DNA of 64,000 nucleotides from a virus. Its lineage: Duplodnaviria; Caudoviricetes. The position numbers and the translations under genes were made by a program. The DNA is taken from positions 64,001 to 128,000 of the IMG/VR virus record IMGVR_UViG_2862465376_000001, one strand, 5' to 3'. Shown here piece by piece: positions 12,567 to 64,000 of the stretch. Each line of letters opens with the position of its first letter. The first letter of the stretch is position 1. Below the pieces are notes generated by a model, which was not told the origin of the DNA, did not search any database, and saw nothing but the letters and a program-made list of their open reading frames with translations.

Positions 12567-14162
12567 GTGGACCGCTGCCACCTGTACCTGCCGCTGATCG
12601 ACTCCTCCGGTGCCACCTATCCGTACGCGGAGGTGACGCTGCTGGATGCCGAGACCGGGGCTCCGGTCGACGATCCGGTGTACCTGCAGCCGACCGGTGG
12701 CGCTCCGCAGAAGTGGCCGCTCCTGATCAACCCGGCAGTCATCAACCTGTGGACCGAGACGCCCATGCGGATCACCGTGCAGGCGCTGCTGCCAGGTGGC
12801 ACCACCTTCACCCGCACCGGCGTGGACATTGCACCGGCGCCGGTGGACACGGTCCGCACGACGAGGCCCGTGCACATCAGCTCCTCCGCCGGACTCGACA
12901 GCTCGGCCATGCTCGTCGTGTCCCCTGGCGGCAAGGCGATCTGGCAGGTTCTCGACGCGCTCCGGTACCACCGGCACGAGGGCGACGCGCCGGAGTCGAC
13001 GATGCTGGGGATGACGAATCTGACCGACATCTACCCCGGCCAGACCTGGCTCGGCTCGGCCTTCGCCGGAGCCCAGGGCGAGGGCGCCACGGCGATCGCA
13101 CGGAACGCCGTACCCAACGGGCCCGGCGCAGCCGCCGTGGGCTCCGGTGCCGACGCGGCGGAGAACGGCGTCTCGGTCGGCAACTCCTCTGGCGCAGGAG
13201 GGTCCTCTGTAGCGCTTGGCGCTCGGGCCAAGGCGACTGCGACGGATCAGGTGGCCCTGGGCTCCGATGCCAGCGCCGCTGCGGCGCCCAGGGGTGCCGT
13301 CGTGATCGGTGCAGGAACCGTCGCCGCCGCCAGCGACATGGTGACCGTCGGCGGCGGCGCGCACATCACTGAGAGCGGGAACGTCGCCCTCGGCCGGGGC
13401 GCGCTGCCCGACCTGAGCTGGCTCGGCTCGGATCCGTACGTGGCCGTCCTGGGCAAGGCCGTCATCGGCCGGTTCCTCGGCGCCCGCGCCAGCGCGGTAC
13501 TCGGCGGTCCGCTCAGCACTGTCGGGGCGTTCGGCGCACCCGGGGGGCTGCAGCCCATGCTCAGTACCGCTGGAGTGTCAACCTCGACTCCGGGCCGCGC
13601 TGCGTTGCTCTCGCTGATGTCCGCCCTCGACCGGCTCGGCATGGTCTACCTGCTGGACGGGGCGGTCGACGACGAGCTGAGCGACTGGTCGAAGGCCTTC
13701 GCGCACGACGCGAACATGGGCCTGGAGACAGGCGACGACGGCTCGAAGGCAGGCGACCTGAACCGGGCCAAGCGCAACGCCATCGGCCCCGGGACCATCA
13801 CCTACCACCAGACCGAAGGGATCCGCGACTTCCGCATCAGGGCCTTCACCTGGTGGCAGGACTGGAACCCCGACAACCACGTCAACGAAATCACGGCGGC
13901 CGTCTCTCCAGACAACGCCGCCTGGACGCCCGTCCCCCTGGCATGGCAGCCGCTCAGCCCGACAGCGGACGACTGGAACCAGGCCTGGGCAGGCAACGCC
14001 CGCCCACTGCCTGCCGGAATGCAGTACCTGCGGATCACCCTCGACCTGAACAGCCAGGCGTGGACACCGCAGATCGGCCGGATCGTCGTCCGCCCGGTCG
14101 ACCCCACGTCCGTCACCGGCTTCGGACAGGGCAGCTTCGGCCAGGGCCCCTTCGGCGGTTAG
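12567..14162 (+). CDS. tail fibre-like protein with YadA-type repeats and a C-terminal putative carbohydrate-binding domain
   Basis: Shared N-terminal domain, ATAIA/SVALG/QVALG repeats, terminal GFGQGSFGQGPFGG. Confidence 0.65.
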   Translation: MDRCHLYLPLIDSSGATYPYAEVTLLDAETGAPVDDPVYLQPTGGAPQKWPLLINPAVINLWTETPMRITVQALLPGGTTFTRTGVDIAPAPVDTVRTTRPVHISSSAGLDSSAMLVVSPGGKAIWQVLDALRYHRHEGDAPESTMLGMTNLTDIYPGQTWLGSAFAGAQGEGATAIARNAVPNGPGAAAVGSGADAAENGVSVGNSSGAGGSSVALGARAKATATDQVALGSDASAAAAPRGAVVIGAGTVAAASDMVTVGGGAHITESGNVALGRGALPDLSWLGSDPYVAVLGKAVIGRFLGARASAVLGGPLSTVGAFGAPGGLQPMLSTAGVSTSTPGRAALLSLMSALDRLGMVYLLDGAVDDELSDWSKAFAHDANMGLETGDDGSKAGDLNRAKRNAIGPGTITYHQTEGIRDFRIRAFTWWQDWNPDNHVNEITAAVSPDNAAWTPVPLAWQPLSPTADDWNQAWAGNARPLPAGMQYLRITLDLNSQAWTPQIGRIVVRPVDPTSVTGFGQGSFGQGPFGG

Positions 14163-31113: not shown

Positions 31114-34100
31114 GTGCTGCGCCTCATTACCTCCTACGCACCCGCCGACGCTCCTTATGTGCAGGTCGGCGACCTTCGCACCACTGCACCGGCCCTCGTC
31201 GAGCATGACGGAGACGGCACCCGCTGGTTCCTGACGCCAGCAACGAACCCACTCGGCGCGAGGCTTCCGCTCTGGAACCGGGCTGAGCGCGATGGAGCGG
31301 CAGGCATCCTCATCCACCTGGTCAACGGCGTGCTGGCCGTCCCCGCGCACCTTGTCGAGGAGCACAGCGGAGCCCAGCCCGGACAGATCCTCGACCTCAG
31401 CAACGTGCCCACTGCCGCCTTCGAGGACGCGCCGACCTACCACGAGGTCCTGGACCAGCTCGAAGCCGCCCAGGACCCGCCCAAGACGTCCTCCGGGTTC
31501 GTGCACCTCCACACGCACAGCGAGTACAGCCCGCTCGACGGCCTGTCCCGCATGGACGAGATCCTCCGCGAGGTCACCCGCCACGGCCAGACCGCCGTCG
31601 CCATCACCGACCACGGCACCTGCGCCGGGCACCCCGAGCTGCAGCGCGCGGCCGACAAGGCCGGGGTCAAGCCGGTCTTCGGCATCGAGGCGTACCTGTG
31701 CGACGACCGCGTCATCCGCGCCGAGAAGGGCGACAAGGAGTTGCAGGACAAGCTCCGCAACGACTACTGGCACGTCTGCCTCTTCGCCGAGAACGAGACC
31801 GGCCTGCGCAACATCTGGGCCGCCAGCACCGAGTCCTTCCGCGACGGCTTCTACTTCCGGCCCCGCATGGACTGGGACACCCTCGGCCGCTTCAGCGAGG
31901 GCGTCATTGCCTCCACCGGCTGCCTGCGCGGCCCCGTCGCCGTCGCCATCAAGACCGGAGACATGGAGCTGGCCCGCCAGCGCCTGACCCGGCTCATGGA
32001 CCTCTACCCGGGCCGCCTGTACGTCGAGCTGCAGCCCAACGACATGCCCGACCAGGTCAACCTCAACCAGGCCCTCGTCTCCCTGGCCGCCGAGTTCGGC
32101 CTGCCGCTGCTGGCCACCGTCGACAGCCACTTCCCGACCGCCGACGACGCCCACGCCCACGACGTCTGGATCGCCTGCCAGACCAACAAGGACGTCCAGG
32201 ACGAAGGCGACCTCTTCGCCGAGGACCTGAACCTCTACGTCATGGGCGAGGCCGAGGTCCGCGCCGGACTCGCCTACCTCGGCGAGCGCGTCGTCGAGGA
32301 GGCCATCGCCAACACCACGGCGCTGGCCGACCGCTGCAACGCCCGCATCGAAGGCGACACGACCACGCCCTCCTTCACCGGCGACCCGGCCGAGGACGAA
32401 CGACGGCTGAACGCCCTGTGCATCGCCAACTGGGACCGGCTGCCCGCCAGCGCCCAGGTCGGCGCATCCGGCTCACAGCGCATCTACCGCGACCGCTACA
32501 TGCGGGAGATGGACCTGCTGGTCGAGAAGGGCTTCTGCGGCTACTACCTCATGGTCGCAGACTACGTCGGCTGGGCGAAGGACCACGGCATCCTCGTCGG
32601 CCCCGGCCGGGGGAGCGGCGGCGGCTCGCTGGTTGCCTACCTCGCCCGCATCACCTCGCTCGACCCGGTCCGCCACGACCTGCTCTTCGAGCGGTTCCTG
32701 ACCCGGGGCCGCGCGGGCCTGCCGGACTTCGACGTGGACTTCCCCGCCTCGAAGAAGGCCGAGATCCTCGGCTACCTCCGCGAGCGCTGGGGCGAGAAGC
32801 AGGTCGTCTCCATCGGCTCCGAGCTGCGCCTGAAGAACAAGGCGGTCATCAACGAGCTGGTCCGCGCGCTCGCCTCCCAGCTCCCCGAGGGCGCCGCCGC
32901 CGACCTCCGCCAGGTCTCCACCCTCATCGACGAGGCCGAAGCCGGGACCGCCGGACTCGGCATGTCCTGGGAGGACCTCTGGGCCCAGCACGCCGACCAG
33001 CTCCAGCCGTTCGCCGACCGCTACCCCGAGCTGTTCGCCATGGCCGAGCGCCTGGTCGGCCGCCTGAAGTCCTACGGCCGCCACGCCGCCGGAGTCGTCA
33101 TCTCCACCGGCGCCCCGCTCACCGACTGGCTGCCGATGCGCACCATCGACGGCGAAGAGCAGATGGTGACCCAGTGGGCCATGGGCGACGTCGAGGCCAT
33201 CGGCCTGGTCAAGTTCGACATCCTCACCCTGCGCACCCTCGACACCATCCAGCAGACCCTCGACCTGGTCCGTGACCAGCGCCACTACGAGATCGACCTG
33301 GAGGCCTTCGAGGCCGAGTTCGAGGACCCGCTGGTCTGGGACGAGCTGCAGGGCGCCCACACCCTCGGCGTCTTCCAGGTCGAGACCCACTCCGGGACCC
33401 GCCTGTGCGAGCGCATGCGCCCAGGCAACGTCGCCGAGCTGGCCGACATGGTCACCATCGTCCGCCCCGGCCCCATGAACTCGGGCCTGACCGACGCCTA
33501 CCTCCGCCGCCGCGCGGGCGAGCAGGCCGTCTCCTTCCCCGACGAGCGCCTGCGCCGCGTTCTGGAGCCCACCTGGGGCGCCATGATCTACCAGGAGCAG
33601 GTCATGGCCGTCACCCGGCTCCTGGCCGGGTACGACGAGTCCGAGGCCGACTACGTCCGCCGCATCCTCGGCAAGAAGAAGGTCTCCGCGATCGCCGAGG
33701 CCGGGCAGACGTTCCTGGAGCGAGTCGACATGCCGCAGGAGGCTGCCGAGCGTCTGTGGAACCAGATGGCCGAGTTCTCCAAGTACGGCTTCAACAAGTC
33801 CCACGCCTACGCGTACGCGTTCCTCGCGTACTGGACCGCGTTCCTGAAGGTCAATTACCCGCGAGAGTTCCTCGTCGCCGCCATGAGCACCGTCGACAAG
33901 GACCGCGTCCCCGAGTTCGTCAAGGAGGCCCGGCGCCTCGACGTGGACGTCCTCCCACCGGACATCAACCGGTCCGGCGCGGGCTTCCGCCCCGACCCCG
34001 ACGCCTACGCGGTCCGCTACGGTCTCGATTCGGTAAAGGGCGTGGGGTCGGCCGCCGTCGCCGACCTACAAGCGGGCCAGCCGTATACAACCTGGGACGA

Positions 34101-46987: not shown

Positions 46988-47584
46988 GTGACCGCTGCCA
47001 GCGAGTGCGTCGGCAAGATCGTGAGTATCGAACGAATCGACGCAGACTACCCCAGCTATCCGGCCTACCCCGAAGGTGAGTACCTGGTCAGTCACGCAAC
47101 CGACAGCAAGTTCTGCGGGGTTCGCATCAACCGAGGGCACAAGCACGGAGGCTTTACCGCGCTTGCGCTTGCGGGTGCCGCAATCACCCAAGGCGTGCCC
47201 CTGACCGGCGACGACGCCTACAGGATCTACCGAGTCAGAGGCGTCGAGTCATGGATGGCGAAGTCCCTGGACGCCCTCTCCGCCGAGATCGCCTTCAACA
47301 GAGAGGACCTGCGTCAGCAGCCACCTAGCGACCCCTCCTTCTGGGAGATGGCCGCACAGAGGGTCCTCAAGCTCCGCACCCTGCTGGAACGTGCAGAAAT
47401 CACCAGCGACCCTGGCGTCAAGCCTTCATGCGCCTACCCCGGCTGCTGCAGGCAGCCCGCCCAGGCCCTGGAGGGGCAGGGCCGGGACGAACTGCCTGTC
47501 CTGGACGTCTACCTGCCGCCGGGCGCCGCCGTCCATGCCCGCCCCGGTTACATCCTGCGGGTCCACCACGACGCGGCGGCCTGA
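46988..47584 (+). CDS. hypothetical protein
   Basis: ORF with weaker codon bias. Confidence 0.4.
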   Translation: MTAASECVGKIVSIERIDADYPSYPAYPEGEYLVSHATDSKFCGVRINRGHKHGGFTALALAGAAITQGVPLTGDDAYRIYRVRGVESWMAKSLDALSAEIAFNREDLRQQPPSDPSFWEMAAQRVLKLRTLLERAEITSDPGVKPSCAYPGCCRQPAQALEGQGRDELPVLDVYLPPGAAVHARPGYILRVHHDAAA

Positions 47585-47634
47585 CGCTGTCCCCGCGCGC
47601 CCTCCCCGCCCCAAGAGGCGAGGAGGGCGCCTTC

Positions 47635-49833
47635 ATGAGCACGCCGGAAGACACATCGCCGCTGGCCGGGTTCGACCCCACCGCGATCCACCACCTGTTC
47701 CTCGGGCTCGACGTCCCCGACCCGATCACCTTCGTCGTCTCACCGAAGTACCTGAGCAGGCCCAACCTGTACCCCCGACAGGCCACCCTTCTGAAATGCT
47801 TTTTTCTCAGAGAGGACCTGTTCACCGAGTACGACTACCGCGTCGTCGCCGAGTGGGACGAGGCCTACCGCACCGCCAAGAGCGCCAACGAGCAGCGCGC
47901 CGCCCGCGCCGCCGCCCTCGCCGAAGAGCAGGACCCCGAAGCCGCCCTCGCGGCCGAGGTCGACGACATCATGACCGACGCCCTCGACGAGCTGGCCCAG
48001 CAGGTCCTCCTCGAAGGCAACGAAGACGCCCCCAAGATGCCCCTGTCCGGCACCCCGGACATCCTCGGCCGCATGCGCGCCTGCAAGGCGCTCGGCTACA
48101 GCTGGTTCAAAGAGATCCTCCTGGTCATGGGCCGCCGCGCCGGGAAGGGCCACATCAGCGCCCTGGCCATGGCGTACGTCCTGTGGTGCTACATGGCCAA
48201 GGGCGACCCCCAGGAGCACTACGGCGTCGACCGCGACAAGAAGCTCGCCGCCCTGATCTTCGCGGGCAAGCGCGACCAGGCCAAGCAGAACCTCTGGCGC
48301 GACTTCGTCAACGTCGTCACCGGAGCCCCCTGCTTCGCCCCCTACATCGCCAGCTCCCTCGGCGAGAAGCTGTCCGTCTACGCCCCCCACGACTTCGTCC
48401 GCATGGAGGAGATGCGCAAGAAGGGCATCAAGACCGCCATGGACATGGCCACCTTCGAGATCCTCCCGAAGGAATCCACCGTCATGGCCGGACGAGGCCC
48501 CGCCTCCTTCATCCTCGGCTTCGACGAGATGGCCCACGTCGTCAACGCGGGCGCCAACCGCTCCGCAGGCGAGGTCTACGACGCCTCCACCCCCTCCCTC
48601 GACCAGTTCGGCAAGGACGGCTTCATCGTCGAACCCAGCTCGCCGTGGGAAATGAGCGGCAAGTTCTACGACAACTGGCTGCGCGCCACCAGCTTCGAAG
48701 ACGACGGCACCCCCACCTACCCCGCCGTCATGATGATCCAGCTCCCCAGCTGGGACATCTACCTCGACTGGCAGATCGCCCACGAACTGCCCCTCTTCCC
48801 CGAAGGCTTCCAGGGCGACAACGCCGAGTACGAGAACGCCCCCCTCCCCGGCTTCCGCGTCCTCAAGGGCGCCATCCAGACCTACGACGAAGAGATGCGC
48901 AAGCTGGAGAAGGCCGACCCCGACACCTTCAAGGTCGAACGCCGCGCCCAGTGGGCCACCGTCCTCGACGCCTACCTCGACCCCGCCAAGGTCGAAGCCG
49001 TCTTCTCCCCCTGGTACGCCCGCCCCGAACGCTACGGCAGCCCCCTCATCGTCCCCACCGAGCGCGGCGTCCTCGCCTACGTCTACAAGGGCCACGCCGA
49101 CCCCAGCTCCGTGAACTGCCGCTTCGGCATCGCCGTCGGCCACACCGAGACCGACGACGAGGGGCGCCCCCACGCCGTCTTCGACAAGATCCACCACTTC
49201 GATCCGGCCGACTTCCCGAATCACACCATCGACTACGAAGAGGTCGAGGACTGGATCTGGGAGGAGATCATCAGCGTCTACCAGCCCGAGGACTTCACGT
49301 TCGACCAGTATCAGAGTGTCGGCAGCATTCAGAAACTCGTCAAACAGGTCGCCCGCGCCCGCCTGGCCAAGCGGGTCAACATCTGGGAGCGCACCGCCAC
49401 CAACCAGCTGAACTGGAAGTACGCCGAGACCTTCAAGGCCGCCATCAACCTCGGCCTCGTCCACGCCCCCGCCTACGAGGACGGCGAACTGGAACTCAAG
49501 TTCCTGCAGAAACCGCCAGGCATCAACCGCGTCGACCACCCCACCGTCGGACCGGTCCAGACCAAAGACATCGCCGACGCGATCATGATCACCACCTACG
49601 CCCTCATCGGCGACTGGATCAGCGGCTACAAGGAGCAGCTCAACGCCGCCAGCGCCCGAGGCGCCATGCAGGGCGGCCTGCACGGATCCAGCCCGCACAG
49701 CCCCGAAATGACCTCGGCAGACCACGACCTCCAGGGCCGCCTCGACGCCTTGCGCCAGTTCACCCGCACCCGCACCGGCCGCCCCGGATGGGAACAGGGA
49801 CTCGGCCGCACCCGGACCGGATATCGCCGTTGA
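47635..49833 (+). CDS. terminase large subunit
   Basis: MGRRAGKG Walker A, LGFDEMAH Walker B, PSSPW, HADPS nuclease start, FDQYQS, KDIADA. Confidence 0.85.
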   Translation: MSTPEDTSPLAGFDPTAIHHLFLGLDVPDPITFVVSPKYLSRPNLYPRQATLLKCFFLREDLFTEYDYRVVAEWDEAYRTAKSANEQRAARAAALAEEQDPEAALAAEVDDIMTDALDELAQQVLLEGNEDAPKMPLSGTPDILGRMRACKALGYSWFKEILLVMGRRAGKGHISALAMAYVLWCYMAKGDPQEHYGVDRDKKLAALIFAGKRDQAKQNLWRDFVNVVTGAPCFAPYIASSLGEKLSVYAPHDFVRMEEMRKKGIKTAMDMATFEILPKESTVMAGRGPASFILGFDEMAHVVNAGANRSAGEVYDASTPSLDQFGKDGFIVEPSSPWEMSGKFYDNWLRATSFEDDGTPTYPAVMMIQLPSWDIYLDWQIAHELPLFPEGFQGDNAEYENAPLPGFRVLKGAIQTYDEEMRKLEKADPDTFKVERRAQWATVLDAYLDPAKVEAVFSPWYARPERYGSPLIVPTERGVLAYVYKGHADPSSVNCRFGIAVGHTETDDEGRPHAVFDKIHHFDPADFPNHTIDYEEVEDWIWEEIISVYQPEDFTFDQYQSVGSIQKLVKQVARARLAKRVNIWERTATNQLNWKYAETFKAAINLGLVHAPAYEDGELELKFLQKPPGINRVDHPTVGPVQTKDIADAIMITTYALIGDWISGYKEQLNAASARGAMQGGLHGSSPHSPEMTSADHDLQGRLDALRQFTRTRTGRPGWEQGLGRTRTGYRR

Positions 49834-50096: not shown

Positions 50097-51494
50097 ATGA
50101 CGGACATCAGCGCGACCAGCTTCTTCCGCCAGGCGGCGGCCGACCCCCCGGGGCTCGACTTCGAGCACGAAGAGGTCGACACCGGTGGCAGTAAACGCCC
50201 TACCAAGATCCACCTGCACGCCGTCGAGCCCGGCACCGGCGACCGCATGGGCACCCTCACCTACCACGTGCCCCGCCGCAAAGCCGACAAGATCCTCATC
50301 GAACACCTTGGCACCGAAGAGGCCCACCAGCGCAAGGGCGTCGGCTCCGCCCTCATGGACGAGATGCAGCGCCGCCACCCCGGCACCCCCATCGATCACG
50401 GCGACCGGACGGACCAGGGAAAGGCGTGGTGGGACAAGTACACCGACGGCAAGAAGGTCACCCGAGGCCGCACCATCGCCTCGGCCACCAAGCCCTGCCC
50501 CTGCTGCGGCGGCACCGGCGAGCACGACACGGGCTTCGAGTGCTTCCACTGCGACGGCGGCCTCACTGTCCCCGCCGACAGCCCCGATGACGCCACCTGT
50601 GACGGCCGCCTGCCCGACGGCGGCCAAGGCAAGACGGCCTTCACCACGCCTGTCCCTGACAACCACGAGCCCTACCAGCACGAGCACGACTGGCTGCCCC
50701 GCGACCACTTCTTCGCACCGGGGGAGAAGGGTCTGGACCCGCGCCTGTTCGACGAGCACGAGCGCATGCACCCGATCGTCCGCCAGCACCTGCTCAGCCT
50801 GCTCAACAGCTTCTGGGCGCCCAAGTACGGCGACTCCTGGCAGTCCTGGGCCCGCGTCTACCTCGCCGGATCCGAGGCCAGCCACTTCTACGGCAACGGC
50901 GACCTCGACATCCTCATCGGCATCGACCACGACGCCCTCAACCACCACGTGGACACCTTCACCGGCGAGCCCCCGGCCGCCGTGGACGAGAAGCTCACCG
51001 ACGAGCTGCGCCACGGCCTCAACGACGAGGCCCGCATGCTCCCCGGCCCGGACGGCAAGGAAACCGGCCCCTGGGAGAATACTTGGTATGTAAACCCGTC
51101 AAGCTATGACATACGGGACATCAAGCCCTACGCCGCCTACGACATCACCCGCGACGAATGGGCCGTGAAACCTGTTGAAGTACCAGACGACTTCAGCCCC
51201 GAAAAGCTCCCCGAGTCCACCTGGGACGTGTTCGAGGCGCTGCAGAAGCTGATCGGCGCTGTCCGGGAACTTCCCGACGGAGTGCGCGAAAGGGAAGGCG
51301 CAGCGTTGTACGATTACCTCCACGCTGACCGCCACAGCGCATTCGGCCCCGAAGGAACGGGCCTCTACGACCCCAGCAACGCCGTCTGGAAAGCCCTCGA
51401 CAAGGCCCCCGACGCACCGTTGCAGCAGCTGATTGACTGGAAGCACGCCCACGACGGCGTGGCCGCCGCCACGGACCAGGAGAAGGCCGCATGA
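50097..51494 (+). CDS. polyvalent protein: GNAT acetyltransferase + Zn finger + pol-beta-type nucleotidyltransferase
   Basis: HQRKGVGSALMDEM (GNAT motif A); CPCCGGTG..CFHCDG; YLAGSEAS..GNGDLDILI (GS..DxD). Confidence 0.75.
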   Translation: MTDISATSFFRQAAADPPGLDFEHEEVDTGGSKRPTKIHLHAVEPGTGDRMGTLTYHVPRRKADKILIEHLGTEEAHQRKGVGSALMDEMQRRHPGTPIDHGDRTDQGKAWWDKYTDGKKVTRGRTIASATKPCPCCGGTGEHDTGFECFHCDGGLTVPADSPDDATCDGRLPDGGQGKTAFTTPVPDNHEPYQHEHDWLPRDHFFAPGEKGLDPRLFDEHERMHPIVRQHLLSLLNSFWAPKYGDSWQSWARVYLAGSEASHFYGNGDLDILIGIDHDALNHHVDTFTGEPPAAVDEKLTDELRHGLNDEARMLPGPDGKETGPWENTWYVNPSSYDIRDIKPYAAYDITRDEWAVKPVEVPDDFSPEKLPESTWDVFEALQKLIGAVRELPDGVREREGAALYDYLHADRHSAFGPEGTGLYDPSNAVWKALDKAPDAPLQQLIDWKHAHDGVAAATDQEKAA

Positions 51495-53431
51495 CCGAGC
51501 ACAGCGCCACGGCGTTCTTCCGCATGACTGGCGCGGTACTGGCCGGTGCCAACGGAGACCTGCCCAGCGGACTGACCTTCTCCCACCGAGAGCATGCAGA
51601 TGGCCACGTTGTGCTCGCGCATCCAGATGACAGGCGTGACGTCTCCGTCGGGTCGCTTTCGTGGTTCAAGCACAAGCGGCCAGGGCCCGAAGACGGGTGG
51701 TGCAAGACGTGCGACGACGAGTACCCCGACGGGCACCACTCCCACCCGGCGGGTGAGGTTGAGGGTGTCCAGGTGCTGCCCAGCTACCGACGCCGTGGTA
51801 TCGCCTCCGCCTTGTGGAGCTACGCCCACTCGCTGGATGTGACTCCCAAGCCGGTGCATTCTGCAGACCAGACAGACGACGGGGCAGCGTGGGCACAGCA
51901 CAGCGCCACGGTGCACTTCCGTGCGGCAGCCGCTTCGAACGGCTGGCACCAGGACCCCGGCCACGCGCACGTCTCACGCGGCATGGAGATCGAGCCGGAC
52001 GGCGGCTGGCACCCCGACGTCGCCCACCGCATCCTGAACGGCACCGCCACCCACGACGACGTCCTCGGCCACGTCGACACCGACCACGTCGGGCACTACT
52101 GGTCGACCCACAGCACCACGGACCCGGGCTCCCTCCGCGAGCCCCGCTCCTACGCCGAGCCCCACGAACCGATCTCGAACTGGACCCCGCACGCCGAGCC
52201 CGGCGAGAACGTCCTGGGCGCCGCCGGAGTCGTCCTCGTCGGCCACCGCCCCCACGGCTGGAACCCCGACGACAACCCCGATGACGGCCTGATGGGCAAC
52301 TCCCACCTGCCCGACCACTCGCACATCCCCCTGCACGAGATCCACTACACCGGCGACGGCGAGAACTGGCACACCCTCACCCCGCCCGCCGGAACCACCG
52401 TCCACACCGACGGCCAGCACCACACCGCCACCGCGCACGACGGCACCCTCCACATCGGCTACGTCGGCCTGCACGACTACGACAAGGCCATCAACCGGCT
52501 CTCCAGCCTCACGGACTTCTTCCGCGAGGCCAGCCTGCAGGAGACTGCCTCCATGGACGACGAGCACCTTGACCTCTACCACCGCACCACGCCGGAGGCC
52601 GCCGCCGCGATCTACCGCGACAAGCGCATGACCTCCAAGGAGCGCATCGGCAACGACCGGCCGGTGTTCTTCTCCACCTTCCGAGGCGACGAGGAAGATG
52701 CTCAGGGGCGCGGATATGGCGAAGGTGTGGTGCACGTGCGCGTACCGCACGAGATCGCCAACATCGACGACGAGTTCCCCTCCGGCGAGGAGCACTACTG
52801 GGTGCACGCCGGTCACCTCAAGCCCGAGCACTTCGTCGAGCCGACCCACCACACCGCTACCCTCCAGGCCACGGCGGCCGAGCAGCAGTTCCTGCAGCGG
52901 CAGGCAGCAGCCGTCCTCCACGACAAGGGCGTGATGGTGGCGCTCGTCCCGCCGCGCGAGGTCGCCGAGCAGCTGGCCCGCGAGGACGGCCAGCCCGCCG
53001 ACCAGCTCCACGTCACCCTCGCCTACCTCGGCAACACCAGCGACTACACCCGCGAGCAGCTCCAGCTGCTCCCGCAGATCGTCGGCGCCTGGGCCGTCCG
53101 CCGCAAGCCCGTCCACGTCCGTATCGGCGGCATCGGCACCTTCAACAACGCCTTCAAGGGAGAGCACGTCCTGTGGGCGGCGGCCGACATCCCCGACGGC
53201 GCCCAGATGCACTCCAGCCTCGCCCACTACCTCGAAGGCCACGGCTACCGCCTGCCCTCCGAACACGGCTGGACCCCGCACCTCACCCTCGCCTACGTCG
53301 ACCGGCACCACCGCTTCATGCCGCGCCTGGACGAGCACCACTGGGACGCCGAGGAAGTCGTCACCTTCATCGGCGGCACCCGCCACCCGGCCCGCCTCTT
53401 CGGCCGACCCAGCACACCCGCCACCCTGTAA
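51491..53431 (+). CDS. polyvalent protein: GNAT + one or two ART-like domains + 2H phosphoesterase
   Basis: YRRRGIASALW (GNAT); SRG..GHYWST and LYHRTT..FFST..YG..E (ART-like, tentative); LHVTLAY and PHLTLAY (two HxT motifs). Confidence 0.72.
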   Translation: MTEHSATAFFRMTGAVLAGANGDLPSGLTFSHREHADGHVVLAHPDDRRDVSVGSLSWFKHKRPGPEDGWCKTCDDEYPDGHHSHPAGEVEGVQVLPSYRRRGIASALWSYAHSLDVTPKPVHSADQTDDGAAWAQHSATVHFRAAAASNGWHQDPGHAHVSRGMEIEPDGGWHPDVAHRILNGTATHDDVLGHVDTDHVGHYWSTHSTTDPGSLREPRSYAEPHEPISNWTPHAEPGENVLGAAGVVLVGHRPHGWNPDDNPDDGLMGNSHLPDHSHIPLHEIHYTGDGENWHTLTPPAGTTVHTDGQHHTATAHDGTLHIGYVGLHDYDKAINRLSSLTDFFREASLQETASMDDEHLDLYHRTTPEAAAAIYRDKRMTSKERIGNDRPVFFSTFRGDEEDAQGRGYGEGVVHVRVPHEIANIDDEFPSGEEHYWVHAGHLKPEHFVEPTHHTATLQATAAEQQFLQRQAAAVLHDKGVMVALVPPREVAEQLAREDGQPADQLHVTLAYLGNTSDYTREQLQLLPQIVGAWAVRRKPVHVRIGGIGTFNNAFKGEHVLWAAADIPDGAQMHSSLAHYLEGHGYRLPSEHGWTPHLTLAYVDRHHRFMPRLDEHHWDAEEVVTFIGGTRHPARLFGRPSTPATL

Positions 53432-56424: not shown

Positions 56425-56754
56425 TCAGGCAGAGTCGCCGATCCGCTCCACGTCGCCTGTCGCCGCCAGGCTCAGCTCCACGTCGTTGTCGAAGAGCACC
56501 CGGTACGGGAACGGGGACACGTACCGGCGCACGAGCGTGATGCGCCCCGGCGCCCCGGCGGGCACGTCGTAGGGGACCCGGCAGTCCTCACCCTCCTGTT
56601 CCAGGTCCTCGTCAATGTACGAGCCGCGTAGCCGCCGCACCGCCTGCACCCGGTCACCCTCCCTCAGCGTGAGCGAGCCGACGTGCACGCGCCGGGCCAC
56701 CTCCAGCTTCTCCTCGAAGGTCAGGGTGTCGAGCTTGGCGTCGAGGGTGCTCAT
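56425..56754 (-). CDS. small hypothetical protein
   Basis: ATGA coupling to the 57107 gene, GGAG RBS. Confidence 0.55.
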   Translation of the reverse strand: MSTLDAKLDTLTFEEKLEVARRVHVGSLTLREGDRVQAVRRLRGSYIDEDLEQEGEDCRVPYDVPAGAPGRITLVRRYVSPFPYRVLFDNDVELSLAATGDVERIGDSA

Positions 56755-57107
56755 CGCGGCAGTGCTCCATTCGGTCGGTCGGGGAAGTCGGCGATCGGGC
56801 TGCAGGGGATCGTCCAGGTGTCCGGCCCGGTCCGCGTCCACCCAGCCGTCGCCACGGCGCTGAGCTTGTCGACCGGGTCGTCGAAACGTTGGGGGTCACC
56901 GGCCGACCGATCCGGCATGAACCCCCGCTCGATCAGCCGGTACCCTAGCCCGCCGCCCGGAATGTAGTCCGGGCCGGTGCTGTCCTCAACGACCATCACG
57001 TACTCGTCGTCGATGCCGGTGCCCTCGACGGTCAGCCACCACCGGCCCTTCTTGTCGGCCCGCGCCGTGGCGGTGCGGACATCGGCGGCGGTCTCGGTCT
57101 CGCTCAT
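56751..57107 (-). CDS. small acidic hypothetical protein
   Basis: AGGAGG RBS; divergent from the CRISPR-like cluster. Confidence 0.6.
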   Translation of the reverse strand: MSETETAADVRTATARADKKGRWWLTVEGTGIDDEYVMVVEDSTGPDYIPGGGLGYRLIERGFMPDRSAGDPQRFDDPVDKLSAVATAGWTRTGPDTWTIPCSPIADFPDRPNGALPR

Positions 57108-57140: not shown

Positions 57141-57182
57141 TCTCGCGGAAGCTCCTCCGGCCGCGCGAGATTCTGCTAACTT
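57141..57182 (+). promoter_or_regulatory. extended -10 promoter and inverted repeat upstream of the CRISPR-like cluster
   Basis: TG-C-TAACTT (57174-57182) ending 7 nt before repeat 1; IR TCTCGCG/CGCGAGA at 57141-57170. Confidence 0.45.
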
Positions 57183-57189
57183 CGTAGAC

Positions 57190-57495
57190 GTGCTCCCCGC
57201 GACAGCGGGGATGGCCCCAGCCTCAGGGGCGTGCACAACTGCTCCCCGCACCTGCGGGGATGGCCCTCGTTAAGGGCAGAGGTGCATTGTTCCCCGCATC
57301 TGCGGGGGTGTACCGGTTGACGAGCACGGTGGTTGAGTGCCCGGAGACTCTTCCCCGCCGACGCGGGGGTGGCTCGGCTTGGTACTTCGAGTAGTCCCCG
57401 CACTGGCGGGGGTGGCTCCGCTCCGGCGGAGGTGGATCGCAACGGCGCAAGCCACGTGGTCAGCAAGATCGCTCCGCGCACGCGGAGGTGAAGGG
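57190..57495 (+). CRISPR. orphan, divergent type I-E-like repeat cluster (7 units)
   Basis: 29-nt units N5-CYCCGC-N4-GCGGRG-N8 at 57190, 57239, 57287, 57348, 57391, 57411 (overlapping) and 57467; spacers 20, 19, 32, 14, none and 27 nt; no cas genes in the window. Confidence 0.8.
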
Positions 57496-57522
57496 CCCCG
57501 ACCTCTTCCGGGGCCCTTCTTC
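57490..57522 (+). terminator. intrinsic terminator closing the repeat cluster
   Basis: GAAGGGCCCCG-ACCTCTTC-CGGGGCCCTTC-TTC. Confidence 0.7.
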
Positions 57523-57654
57523 ATGTCCGGCACAGGATCACCACGGCGGCGGCCAGGAGCAGGACGGTGCCCCAGAATCCTCCGATGAGGACCAGGGCGG
57601 CGCGGGCGTAGGGGTGCAGCGGTGTGTGGCGGGTCACGGCGCCCAGTGTGCCCG

Positions 57655-58497
57655 CTACGGCTTGGTTTCTTCCAGTTCGCCGAAGGGACTGGGGGAGAGG
57701 GCGACCATGTCGGGCTTGATCCGGGCGGGCAGCTCGGGCACGTCAGGGTCGGGGCAGGCGAGCGCGGCGGCCACGGCCTGGTGCAGCACGGTGCGCGGGG
57801 TGGCGTTGGAGTCGAGTCCGTGGCCCCGGTAGCTGACCAGCAGCGGTCCCCGGTCCTGGTAGGAGTGCGGCTCCTTGAAGGTGCGCACCGGCCTGCCGTC
57901 GTCGTCCACGTCCAGGTACTGCTTCACGGCCGCGCGGATCTCGTCGGGGAAGGCGAGGCGGCGGGTGCCGCCGCCCTTCTGCCAGACGTCGGCCGTCATG
58001 CGGTGCTGCTCGAAGACGAGGTCCTGGACGGTCAGTTCGGTGATCTGCCGTGAGCGCAGGCCGACCAGCAGCAGGTAGACGAGGAGCCGGTCGCGGGCGG
58101 GCAGCTGGTCGGCGCCGTAGCGGATGAGTGCCATCTGGCCGTCGGTGAGCTTCTCGGTCCTGGGGGCGTTCCAGGCGCCGGTGCCCATCTTGGGGTGCAC
58201 TGGCGTGGTCTGCACGCAGTTCTTCTCGCGGGCGTAGGCGTAGAAGGCGCCGACGGCCGACACTCGCAGCGCCCGGGTGCGTGCGCCGCCGCCCTTCATG
58301 TCGAGCCAGGTGACGAAGTGGGAGGGCTGGGCGCGCCAGGCGCCGATGTGGACGGTGTCCTCGATGAAGTCGAGCCATGCCTTGGCGTGCTCGGCGTACC
58401 GCTCGGGGCTGGTGCCCTGCAGGAGGCGTCCCTGTTTGCCCCGGCGGTCGGGGTTGTGTTCGTCGAGCCAGGTGGCCAGCACGGTGCGCGCGTCCAT
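57655..58497 (-). CDS. tyrosine recombinase-like protein, apparently lacking HxxR and the catalytic Tyr
   Basis: SAM-like N-terminus (RVSAVGAFYAYA), RDRLLVYLLLVGLRSRQI, KGG; ends RIKPDMVALSPSPF. Confidence 0.65.
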   Translation of the reverse strand: MDARTVLATWLDEHNPDRRGKQGRLLQGTSPERYAEHAKAWLDFIEDTVHIGAWRAQPSHFVTWLDMKGGGARTRALRVSAVGAFYAYAREKNCVQTTPVHPKMGTGAWNAPRTEKLTDGQMALIRYGADQLPARDRLLVYLLLVGLRSRQITELTVQDLVFEQHRMTADVWQKGGGTRRLAFPDEIRAAVKQYLDVDDDGRPVRTFKEPHSYQDRGPLLVSYRGHGLDSNATPRTVLHQAVAAALACPDPDVPELPARIKPDMVALSPSPFGELEETKP

Positions 58498-58539
58498 GGC
58501 GCACCATCCTGGCATGCGGCTACGACAGGGGGCGCAGCG

Positions 58540-63171: not shown

Positions 63172-64000
63172 CTACGCCTTCGCGAGGTATCCGGCGAGGT
63201 CGTACACCGGAGAGCCGTCCAGGTCGTGCCGGGCCAGGTCGTAGCGGTTCGTGGTGCGGGGATCGGCGTGACCGAGGAAGCGCTGCACCTTCCGCAGCGG
63301 CACACCTGCGTCGAGCATCAGCGTGGCGCAGGTGTGGCGCAGGCCGTGCGGGGAGAGCGCCTTGTCGATGCGGGCAGCCCTGCAGCAGCGCTGGACGATG
63401 CCCGCGATACGCCGGTTGGTCAGCCGCTTGCCGTCGGCGCACAGCACGAGAGCGTCGCCGTCACGGCGACCGGGCCGCCGCGCGAGGTGCTCGTCCAGCG
63501 CGCGGGCGGCGTCCGGCGGCACCACCAGGGTCTGCTTCTTGGTGCGCTTGCGGACGATCTGCAGAGTCCGGTGGCCGCGCGCCCCGCCGTAGCTGGCCAC
63601 GTTCGCGGCCTCCAGCTCGGCCGACCGCAGGCCCATCCCCAGCAGGATCTCGATGACGGCCGCGTCGGCCGCCCCGTACTCCCAGCTCATCGCCCGCAGC
63701 CGCTGGGCCTCCTCCTTGTCCAGCCCGAGCGTCTGCGACTCGTCAGAGGTCTCGACCCGGTGCTTCTTCCGCCACGGCGTGTGCTCGATCTCGAACGCCT
63801 GCGGGTACTCGTCCAGGCCGTACTCGTACCAGGAGTTCATGGCCGACAGGGCCTGGTTCACCGCCGAGGCGCCGAGCACCTCCTGCAGGTCCGCCGACCA
63901 CTGCGCGGAGTGCTGGCGCCGGGCAGCCAGCGGCGAGACCCCGTTGTCCAGCGTCCAGTCGAACCAGTTGCCGACGCACCGTCGGTAGGCCCGCTTGGTA
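63172..64000 (-). CDS. XerC/D-like tyrosine recombinase (5' end outside window)
   Basis: GLRSAEL, SPHGLRH, LGHADPRTTNRY: full catalytic set. Confidence 0.9.
   Translation of the reverse strand, partial: TKRAYRRCVGNWFDWTLDNGVSPLAARRQHSAQWSADLQEVLGASAVNQALSAMNSWYEYGLDEYPQAFEIEHTPWRKKHRVETSDESQTLGLDKEEAQRLRAMSWEYGAADAAVIEILLGMGLRSAELEAANVASYGGARGHRTLQIVRKRTKKQTLVVPPDAARALDEHLARRPGRRDGDALVLCADGKRLTNRRIAGIVQRCCRAARIDKALSPHGLRHTCATLMLDAGVPLRKVQRFLGHADPRTTNRYDLARHDLDGSPVYDLAGYLAKA

Follow-up and report, generated by a model that had tools for sequence, protein, structure and literature searches.

Seven type I-E-like repeats in a cas-less phage probably encode crRNA-like regulatory RNAs related to Streptomyces host guides

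What a phage does with a row of type I-E-like repeats and spacers as short as 14 nt is the question raised by the locus described here. The window, the whole stretch of DNA that was analyzed, comprises 64,000 nucleotides (G+C content 68.8%) and corresponds to positions 64,001 to 128,000 of IMG/VR record IMGVR_UViG_2862465376_000001, a phage record of 156,949 bp (~157 kb). Its genes encode a baseplate protein, a poly-gamma-glutamate-hydrolase tail fibre, helicases, DnaB, primase, PolIII alpha, RecA and TerL, together with polyvalent GNAT/LigT proteins, a DUF2637 protein and tyrosine recombinases. Seven 29-nt type I-E-like repeats occupy positions 57190-57495 on the + strand, flanked by a divergent 118-aa gene on one side and by a small hydrophobic ORF on the other. 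We consider it probable, at roughly 0.78, that this locus is an array of crRNA-like regulatory RNAs (Cracr-type) that has no cas genes of its own and would rely on host type I-E Cas6e and Cascade. The features of the locus, in window coordinates, are the following:

56751..57107, - strand: divergent 118-aa gene, function not assigned, used as the marker to find relatives
57177..57182, + strand: candidate -10 box TAACTT within CTGCTAACTT, a putative array promoter by resemblance
57190-57218, + strand: repeat R1, identical, loop aside, to bona fide I-E repeats of Streptomyces, Kitasatospora and Nocardiopsis
57219-57238, + strand: pseudo-spacer S1, 20 nt, apparent mimic of a host CreA-like guide, seed AGCCT.AGGGG.GT
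57239-57267, + strand: repeat R2, with loop ACCT, which also occurs in the second repeat of a host mini-array
57268-57286, + strand: pseudo-spacer S2, 19 nt, family CGTTA.GGGCA.AG, related to a host CreR-like guide
57287-57315, + strand: repeat R3
57316-57347, + strand: pseudo-spacer S3, 32 nt, of which only positions 1-16 are kept in the sister phage, position 6 excepted
57348-57376, + strand: repeat R4
57377-57390, + strand: pseudo-spacer S4, 14 nt, of a family found in 9 viral contigs, with a host counterpart in Streptomyces genome G083
57391-57419 and 57411-57439, + strand: repeats R5 and R6, an overlapping hairpin pair, R5 with stem CCCCGC and R6 with stem CTCCGC
57440-57466, + strand: pseudo-spacer S6, 27 nt, preceded by the handle GTGGATCG, as in viral contigs L048 and L067
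57467-57495, + strand: repeat R7, stem CTCCGC/GCGGAG, the second repeat class, common to many Streptomyces I-E arrays
57490..57519, + strand: 11-bp G+C-rich hairpin overlapping the 3' end of R7, likely the terminator that closes the unit
57521..57641, - strand: small hydrophobic ORF of ~39 aa, present too in relatives that lack the array

Each repeat begins with 5 nt, continues with the two arms of a 6-bp stem around a 4-nt loop, and ends in an 8-nt handle. The stem is CCCCGC/GCGGGG in five units and CTCCGC/GCGGAG in R6 and R7, and the hairpin motif CCCCGC-N4-GCGGGG occurs five times in the window against an expected 0.08. Re-deriving the layout returned spacers of 20, 19, 32, 14 and 27 nt with exactly the sequences listed by an earlier, sequence-only reading, and added the 9-nt overlap of R5 and R6, which leaves zero spacer between them and was absent from that description. 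When this array was aligned with related elements and host mini-arrays, stem cells were paired in 138 of 138 cases across the 23 repeats, with compensatory changes in two pairs and freely varying loops. The repeats thus mimic host repeats with the Cas6 hairpin kept: the R1 pattern is found in at least 119 host array stretches, and CTCCGC is likewise a host repeat class. Hairpins of this kind would also be expected of a pure, Racr-like decoy, in which the seven hairpins sequester Cas6e, Cas5 and Cas7 in aberrant sub-complexes and the guides have no function; individually diverged repeats that all keep a Cas6e-type hairpin, and the lack of a spacer between R5 and R6, both speak in favor of such a decoy, to which we return once the guides have been described.

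The TAACTT box resembles CTGCTAGCGT, found upstream of arrays in two mobile elements (L264 and L069), and the host cse1 promoter GCTGCTAGCGT. A consensus scan called no sigma-70 promoter and no terminator at the array, the latter because the T run at the terminal hairpin is poor, and Rfam returned no family match on the array region. L264 (G273:C486, reverse strand 1430-1620) and L069 are tRNA-adjacent integrated elements with arrays of one to three guides of the same family (23-nt, S1-type 20-nt and S2-type 21-nt), each with a CTGCTAGCGT promoter-like box and a terminal hairpin.

We found no Cas family among the ~46 window ORFs scanned, and no match to Cas7e or Cas6e in the sister genome IMGVR_UViG_3300042934_001067 (156,276 bp, CheckV 100% complete); the element is therefore taken to be cas-less, and the array is encoded on a virus, outside any CRISPR-Cas locus. 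Searches with Pfam and PHROGs gave no Acr or Aca hint for the neighboring small ORFs. The hosts are taken to be Streptomyces, and a relative was located in an S. griseoaurantiacus assembly. INPHARED phages gave no DNA match to the array locus, PLSDB nothing but an integrase-region match, and a metagenome scan with an exact 30-mer of the array no match. Elsewhere in the window, a polyvalent protein at 51491-53431 shows weak GNAT matches and a C-terminal 2H/LigT phosphoesterase domain; ART-PolyVal is also present in relatives. The polyvalent protein may be an anti-defence factor that is injected. Two tyrosine-recombinase-like genes on the minus strand (57655-58515, with a weak integrase match only, and 63172-63879) occupy a mosaic region where the window and the sister phage differ.

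All seven repeats and all the pseudo-spacers recur in the sister phage, where identity is ~94% over the array compared to ~87% over the alignable flanks; this is the one independent copy in which the exact array is known. Between the two phages, guide seeds changed at 3 of 60 positions, compared to 11 of 52 in the rest of the guides. In five further, more distant syntenic relatives, the 118-aa gene abuts the small ORF and the array is absent. With repeats of ~75% column identity in the alignment, spacers of 14-32 nt and units common to the sister phage, the locus departs from adaptive type I-E arrays; judged by these features, the array is not adaptive. Its confinement to this phage and its sister would fit a decaying, functionless remnant of a host CRISPR array that was acquired by recombination and whose short spacers are deletions, and such a remnant would also agree with the lack of a called promoter and with the short or overlapping units that occur occasionally in host arrays. 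On the other hand, the array is more conserved than its flanks, all hairpins are intact and show compensatory changes, the guides are homologous to regulatory host guides rather than to ordinary spacers, and the same architecture, closed by a G+C-rich hairpin, is found in other elements. We therefore regard a remnant as very unlikely.

Since the sequence-only reading had proposed that the spacer lengths cluster near 32 minus multiples of 6, we compared them with host and viral arrays. Three of the five values fall exactly on this lattice (nominal P ~0.035), but the test is post hoc, half of all lengths would fit 32-6n with a tolerance of +/-1, and a strict 6-nt periodicity does not emerge. Of ~1400 spacers in Streptomyces-type host arrays that share the repeat, 1284 (>90%) are 32 nt long and ~1% are 28 nt or shorter, so that the short lengths of this array are far from chance relative to real arrays. 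An IMG/VR scan for two I-E hairpins 25-36 nt apart yielded 92 contigs, a search that catches only contigs with at least one spacer of 12-23 nt. Among their 124 unique short spacers (12-23 nt), 82 were 20-21 nt and 13 were 14-15 nt, the 14-nt class being one homologous family, while lengths of 26-27 nt were not enriched. The 6-nt lattice is thus weakly supported; what stands out robustly is a preference for 20-21 nt, next to a single 14-nt family.

To place the guides, we examined a sample of 401 Streptomyces genomes, where G-numbers denote GTDB representatives; the unpublished genome G132 underlies no statement made here. A Cse1 match is present in 166 of the 401, and many of these matches fall within open frames as long as 1450-1800 aa, a size suggestive of Cas3-Cse1 fusions. 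Streptomyces genome G331 has a type I-E array (L310) with a spacer that is identical over 32/32 positions to window positions 49222-49253, within the TerL gene (47428-49833), where the flanking triplet is AAT; a second spacer of the same genome matches window positions 33181-33212 at 28/32, where the flank is AAC. These spacers record the phage lineage as a target of I-E immunity in Streptomyces. G331 shows neither an S1-type unit nor a homologue of the membrane protein described below, and its cas locus holds no clear target for any of the five guides.

S1 has the clearest host counterpart. The repeat handle followed by the S1 seed matched 4 of the 401 Streptomyces genomes and gave 0 control matches. 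At three of the four, the site is divergently oriented relative to cse1, 630-680 bp upstream of that gene. These sites belong to a module with the following order: an AAC-flanked target over a ribosome-binding region, an ORF for a 64-73-aa two-helix membrane protein, a -10-like AGTAGCAT, a degenerate repeat, a 20-21-nt guide (33 nt in G383) and a second degenerate repeat. The modules are found at L262/L266 (G224), L263/L269 (G032), L265/L267 (G127), L268 (G383) and L173, the last in NZ_OZ186787.1 (Streptomyces sp. SudanB25_2051, ~5541300-5541700), where the module stands at the far end of the cas operon. In each of the five host modules, guide and target are complementary at positions 1-5 and 7-11 and again from position 13 (13-14 paired). 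Mismatches are confined to the flipped positions, with three modules of the five mismatched at position 6 and every one at position 12. At positions 2, 3 and 9, guide and target change together across G224, G032, G127, G383 and NZ_OZ186787.1. The membrane protein (P0008 family) has no Pfam match, and we found no description of such a Streptomyces module in the literature searched. By its layout, the module has the architecture of CreTA/CrePA, and the membrane protein is a toxin candidate.

The seed of S1 is of the G224/G032 type. It matches these guides at positions 1-5 and 7-14, with an overall agreement of 17/20 (G224) and 18/20 (G032), and S1 pairs in silico with AAC|AGCCT.AGGGG.GT in the ribosome-binding region of the membrane-protein gene of G224 and G032, genomes that may not represent the host of this phage. 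A further 17/20 match of S1 in a coding region of G002 was judged to be chance. S1 is the only guide that fully shows the agreement with a host CreA/CreR guide over at least nine PAM-proximal positions expected of a Cracr; a complementary, PAM-flanked site within the promoter region of a cas or toxin gene is found in silico for S1 and, with one seed mismatch, for S2.

S2 and S4 are related to host guides that address the cas genes themselves. In G053, a 19-nt guide beginning CGTTAGGAGCA has its target, AAC|CGTTAGGAGCA, between the cse1 ORF and a conserved promoter that closely precedes the target, and the same site is also found in S. hydrogenans JCM 4771 and two NPDC strains. S2 agrees with the G053 guide at 9 of the first 11 positions and at 9/10 seed positions, the seed mismatch being at position 8, and its in-silico pairing with AAC|CGTTA.GAGCA, upstream of cse1, has a single seed mismatch. 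In G083, a 14-nt guide with the same handle, GTGTTCC, lies upstream of cse1, and its AAG-flanked target, AAG|GCTTGTCATTT, lies 115 bp before the cse1 ATG; S4 agrees with this guide at 9/11 positions and differs at position 7. Exact targets of S2 and S4 were not found, the nearest host guides and targets being one seed position off (8 and 7, respectively). A resemblance between the reverse complement of S4 and AGTAGCAT, in the -10 region of the host mini-array promoter, was dropped once the 14-nt host guide and its target had been found.

More generally, CreR-like mini-arrays target cse1 or cas3-cse1 promoters in several Streptomyces genomes, with AAC or AAG as the PAM. These loci are L330 (7647-7720 and ~12990; G053), L221 (4889), L150, L214, L319 (13033 and 13150-13230; G083) and L308 (3029-3150 and 3392; G142). 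One type of cse1/cas target is preceded by the promoter GCTGCTAGCGTCCTGT.

The two longer spacers behave differently from the other three: S3 and S6 have no counterpart in ~140 cas loci, and S3-type and S6-type units in the viral scans were coding-sequence coincidences only. Fuzzy matching of whole spacers against the window and host array stretches stayed at the level of shuffled controls, and seed matches of S3 antisense to cse1, which carry a seed mismatch and no PAM, amount to one chance match repeated over homologous genes. The canonical length of S3 (32 nt) had led to the suggestion that it could be a true guide against a competing element. Virus-borne mini-arrays directed against relatives are known from archaeal viruses, and the array could by analogy be an inter-phage weapon that uses host Cascade and Cas3 against competing phages or plasmids, with S3 as the cutting guide. 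We found no S3 protospacer beyond chance in 50,697 phage and 72,556 plasmid records (E >=3), no match in the window or the sister phage, and no related viral unit. Moreover, S3 differs between the sister phages at position 6 and then solely from position 17 onward, positions 17-28 having drifted; this pattern resembles that of a partial-match regulatory guide and does not look like that of a true interference guide. The drift of the PAM-distal half, together with the missing protospacer, goes against both the proposed role of S3 and the weapon, which we consider highly improbable.

The guide families extend to other mobile elements. Clustering of the 92 contigs without a preset pattern recovered sequence families common to unrelated contigs, among them the S1 family AGYYT.AGGGG..., the strictly 14-nt S4 family in 9 contigs and an 18-nt family. 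The S2 family is present in two integrated elements adjoining tRNA genes, one of which has S1-type and S2-type units in the same order as the window, and guide families recur in unrelated viral or integrated elements (L104, L093, L020, L068, L264 and L069). Across the S1, S2 and S4 families, 18 of 42 cells at positions 6 and 12 depart from the consensus, compared to 16 of 210 at seed positions, a statistic that is biased by the partial collection of S1 and S2 members with position 6 left free, so that only the S4 cluster and the position-12 mismatches in guide-target pairs are free of this collection bias. The spacer-less overlapping hairpin pair is also found in ~11 viral contigs. Overlaps of 8-10 nt, often with CCCCGC and CTCCGC stems, are seen in L020, L041, L046, L048, L067, L068, L075, L093 and L104, and overlapping hairpins occur occasionally within host arrays (L181, L188 and L214). 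The pair might serve as a decoy or as a processing insulator, or be the scar of a recombination event.

These comparisons bear on the pure decoy introduced above. Racrs against type I-E systems are known experimentally (PMC10651486), and the absence of targets for S3 and S6 is what a decoy would predict. A decoy role does not, however, require guide homology or seed conservation, and both are present here: S1, S2 and S4 fall into families common to host cas-linked guides and unrelated elements, in which seeds are conserved and positions 6 and 12 are free, and seeds change less than other positions between the sister phages. We thus consider it unlikely that the array acts as a decoy alone, and favor an array of crRNA-like regulatory RNAs.

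The direct basis of this favored reading is the anatomy of the array together with its homology to host elements, its pairing in silico and its pattern of conservation, and from these we infer transcription, processing, Cascade stoichiometry, repression, host-protein toxicity and a benefit for the phage. The array would be transcribed from its own promoter up to the terminal hairpin, and host Cas6e would cleave the transcript at the seven repeat hairpins. The products may then load Cascade, where guides of 14-20 nt would assemble fewer Cas7 subunits, and with PAM-proximal complementarity only, the complexes would bind DNA and not trigger Cas3. S1, which appears to copy a cas-linked host guide directed at a ribosome-binding region, would keep off the toxin candidate of this CreTA/CrePA-like safeguard, while S2 and S4, as apparent copies of guides on cse1 promoters, would tighten cas repression. 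All products would compete with immune crRNAs for Cas proteins, and the spacer-less R5/R6 pair may serve as a pure decoy. The idea, already put forward from the sequence, that the short guides form truncated, repressing Cascades at host or cas promoters gains comparative evidence for three of the five guides (S1, S2 and S4, with PAM-flanked host sites).

The presence of two repeat classes and several guide types suggests that the array is aimed at several Streptomyces I-E variants. With somewhat less than even confidence, we propose that one transcript combines three modes of counter-defence against these variants: a mimic of the antitoxin guide that keeps the small membrane toxin silent, mimics of cas autorepressors, and a hairpin decoy. 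Under this three-mode proposal, the 14-nt guide would load a mini-Cascade with three Cas7 subunits, and a length of 20-21 nt may have been selected as the longest guide that binds without licensing Cas3.

Arrays of this kind have already been described as Cracr arrays, viral crRNA-like RNAs whose guides are copied from host CreR/CreA and which compete for Cas proteins and repress the promoters of cas or toxin genes (bioRxiv 10.1101/2024.10.29.618823), and the present locus is a long, mixed example. The guides of Cracrs are mostly 17-21 nt, and their complexes have fewer backbone subunits, as in Csy complexes with type I-F Cracrs, which are reported to contain fewer Cas7-type (Csy3) subunits (bioRxiv 10.1101/2024.10.29.618823). 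Like the CracrIE array of the Salmonella Se29 prophage (Liu et al.), the phage array sits on a cas-less mobile element, has degenerate I-E repeats and short pseudo-spacers (21-24 nt in Se29 compared to 14-27 nt here), carries guides that appear to copy host CreR/CreA and match cas or toxin promoters by PAM-proximal pairing, and multiplexes its units in one apparent transcription unit. It differs from the I-E arrays of Liu et al., which have only two or three spacers, in having five guides and seven repeats, in mixing a toxin-silencing type (S1) with cas-promoter types (S2 and S4), in its two repeat classes, its spacer-less overlapping pair and its 14-nt guide, and in its Streptomyces host.

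The phage array shares repeat mimicry by a phage with Racrs, for which I-E examples have been validated (Camara-Wilpert et al., Nature 2023, PMC10651486), and the guide-less R5/R6 pair could act in this way. Racrs, however, are solitary and have no conserved guide, whereas this array is not solitary and most of its units carry guides homologous to host regulators. The Streptomyces elements resemble CreTA/CrePA and CreR (bioRxiv 10.1101/2024.01.05.574328 and 10.1101/2023.03.10.532045) in having two degenerate repeats, an 11-14-nt PAM-proximal match, a location inside I-E loci and, as target, a neighboring small gene or the cse1 promoter. These host modules would be the models that the phage copies, and the Streptomyces toxin candidate belongs to no known family. 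A physical basis for the length classes is offered by E. coli Cascade with shortened I-E crRNAs, where assembly is driven by the crRNA: shortened crRNAs recruit fewer Cas7 subunits, 14-nt spacers only prime and spacers of >20 nt interfere (Kuznedelov et al. 2016, PMC5159557). The guides in that work were engineered, and the stoichiometry in Streptomyces is predicted by analogy.

Altogether, these findings would extend the RNA-based hijacking of CRISPR regulation to large Streptomyces phages, and indicate that one array can mix toxin-silencing and cas-silencing guides as well as two repeat classes. They also point to a candidate CRISPR-guarding toxin module in Streptomyces I-E loci. Arrays of this type may explain why I-E spacers against a phage, such as the perfect TerL spacer, do not necessarily protect the host, and their 14-20-nt guides may offer compact natural designs for Cascade-based repression in actinomycetes.
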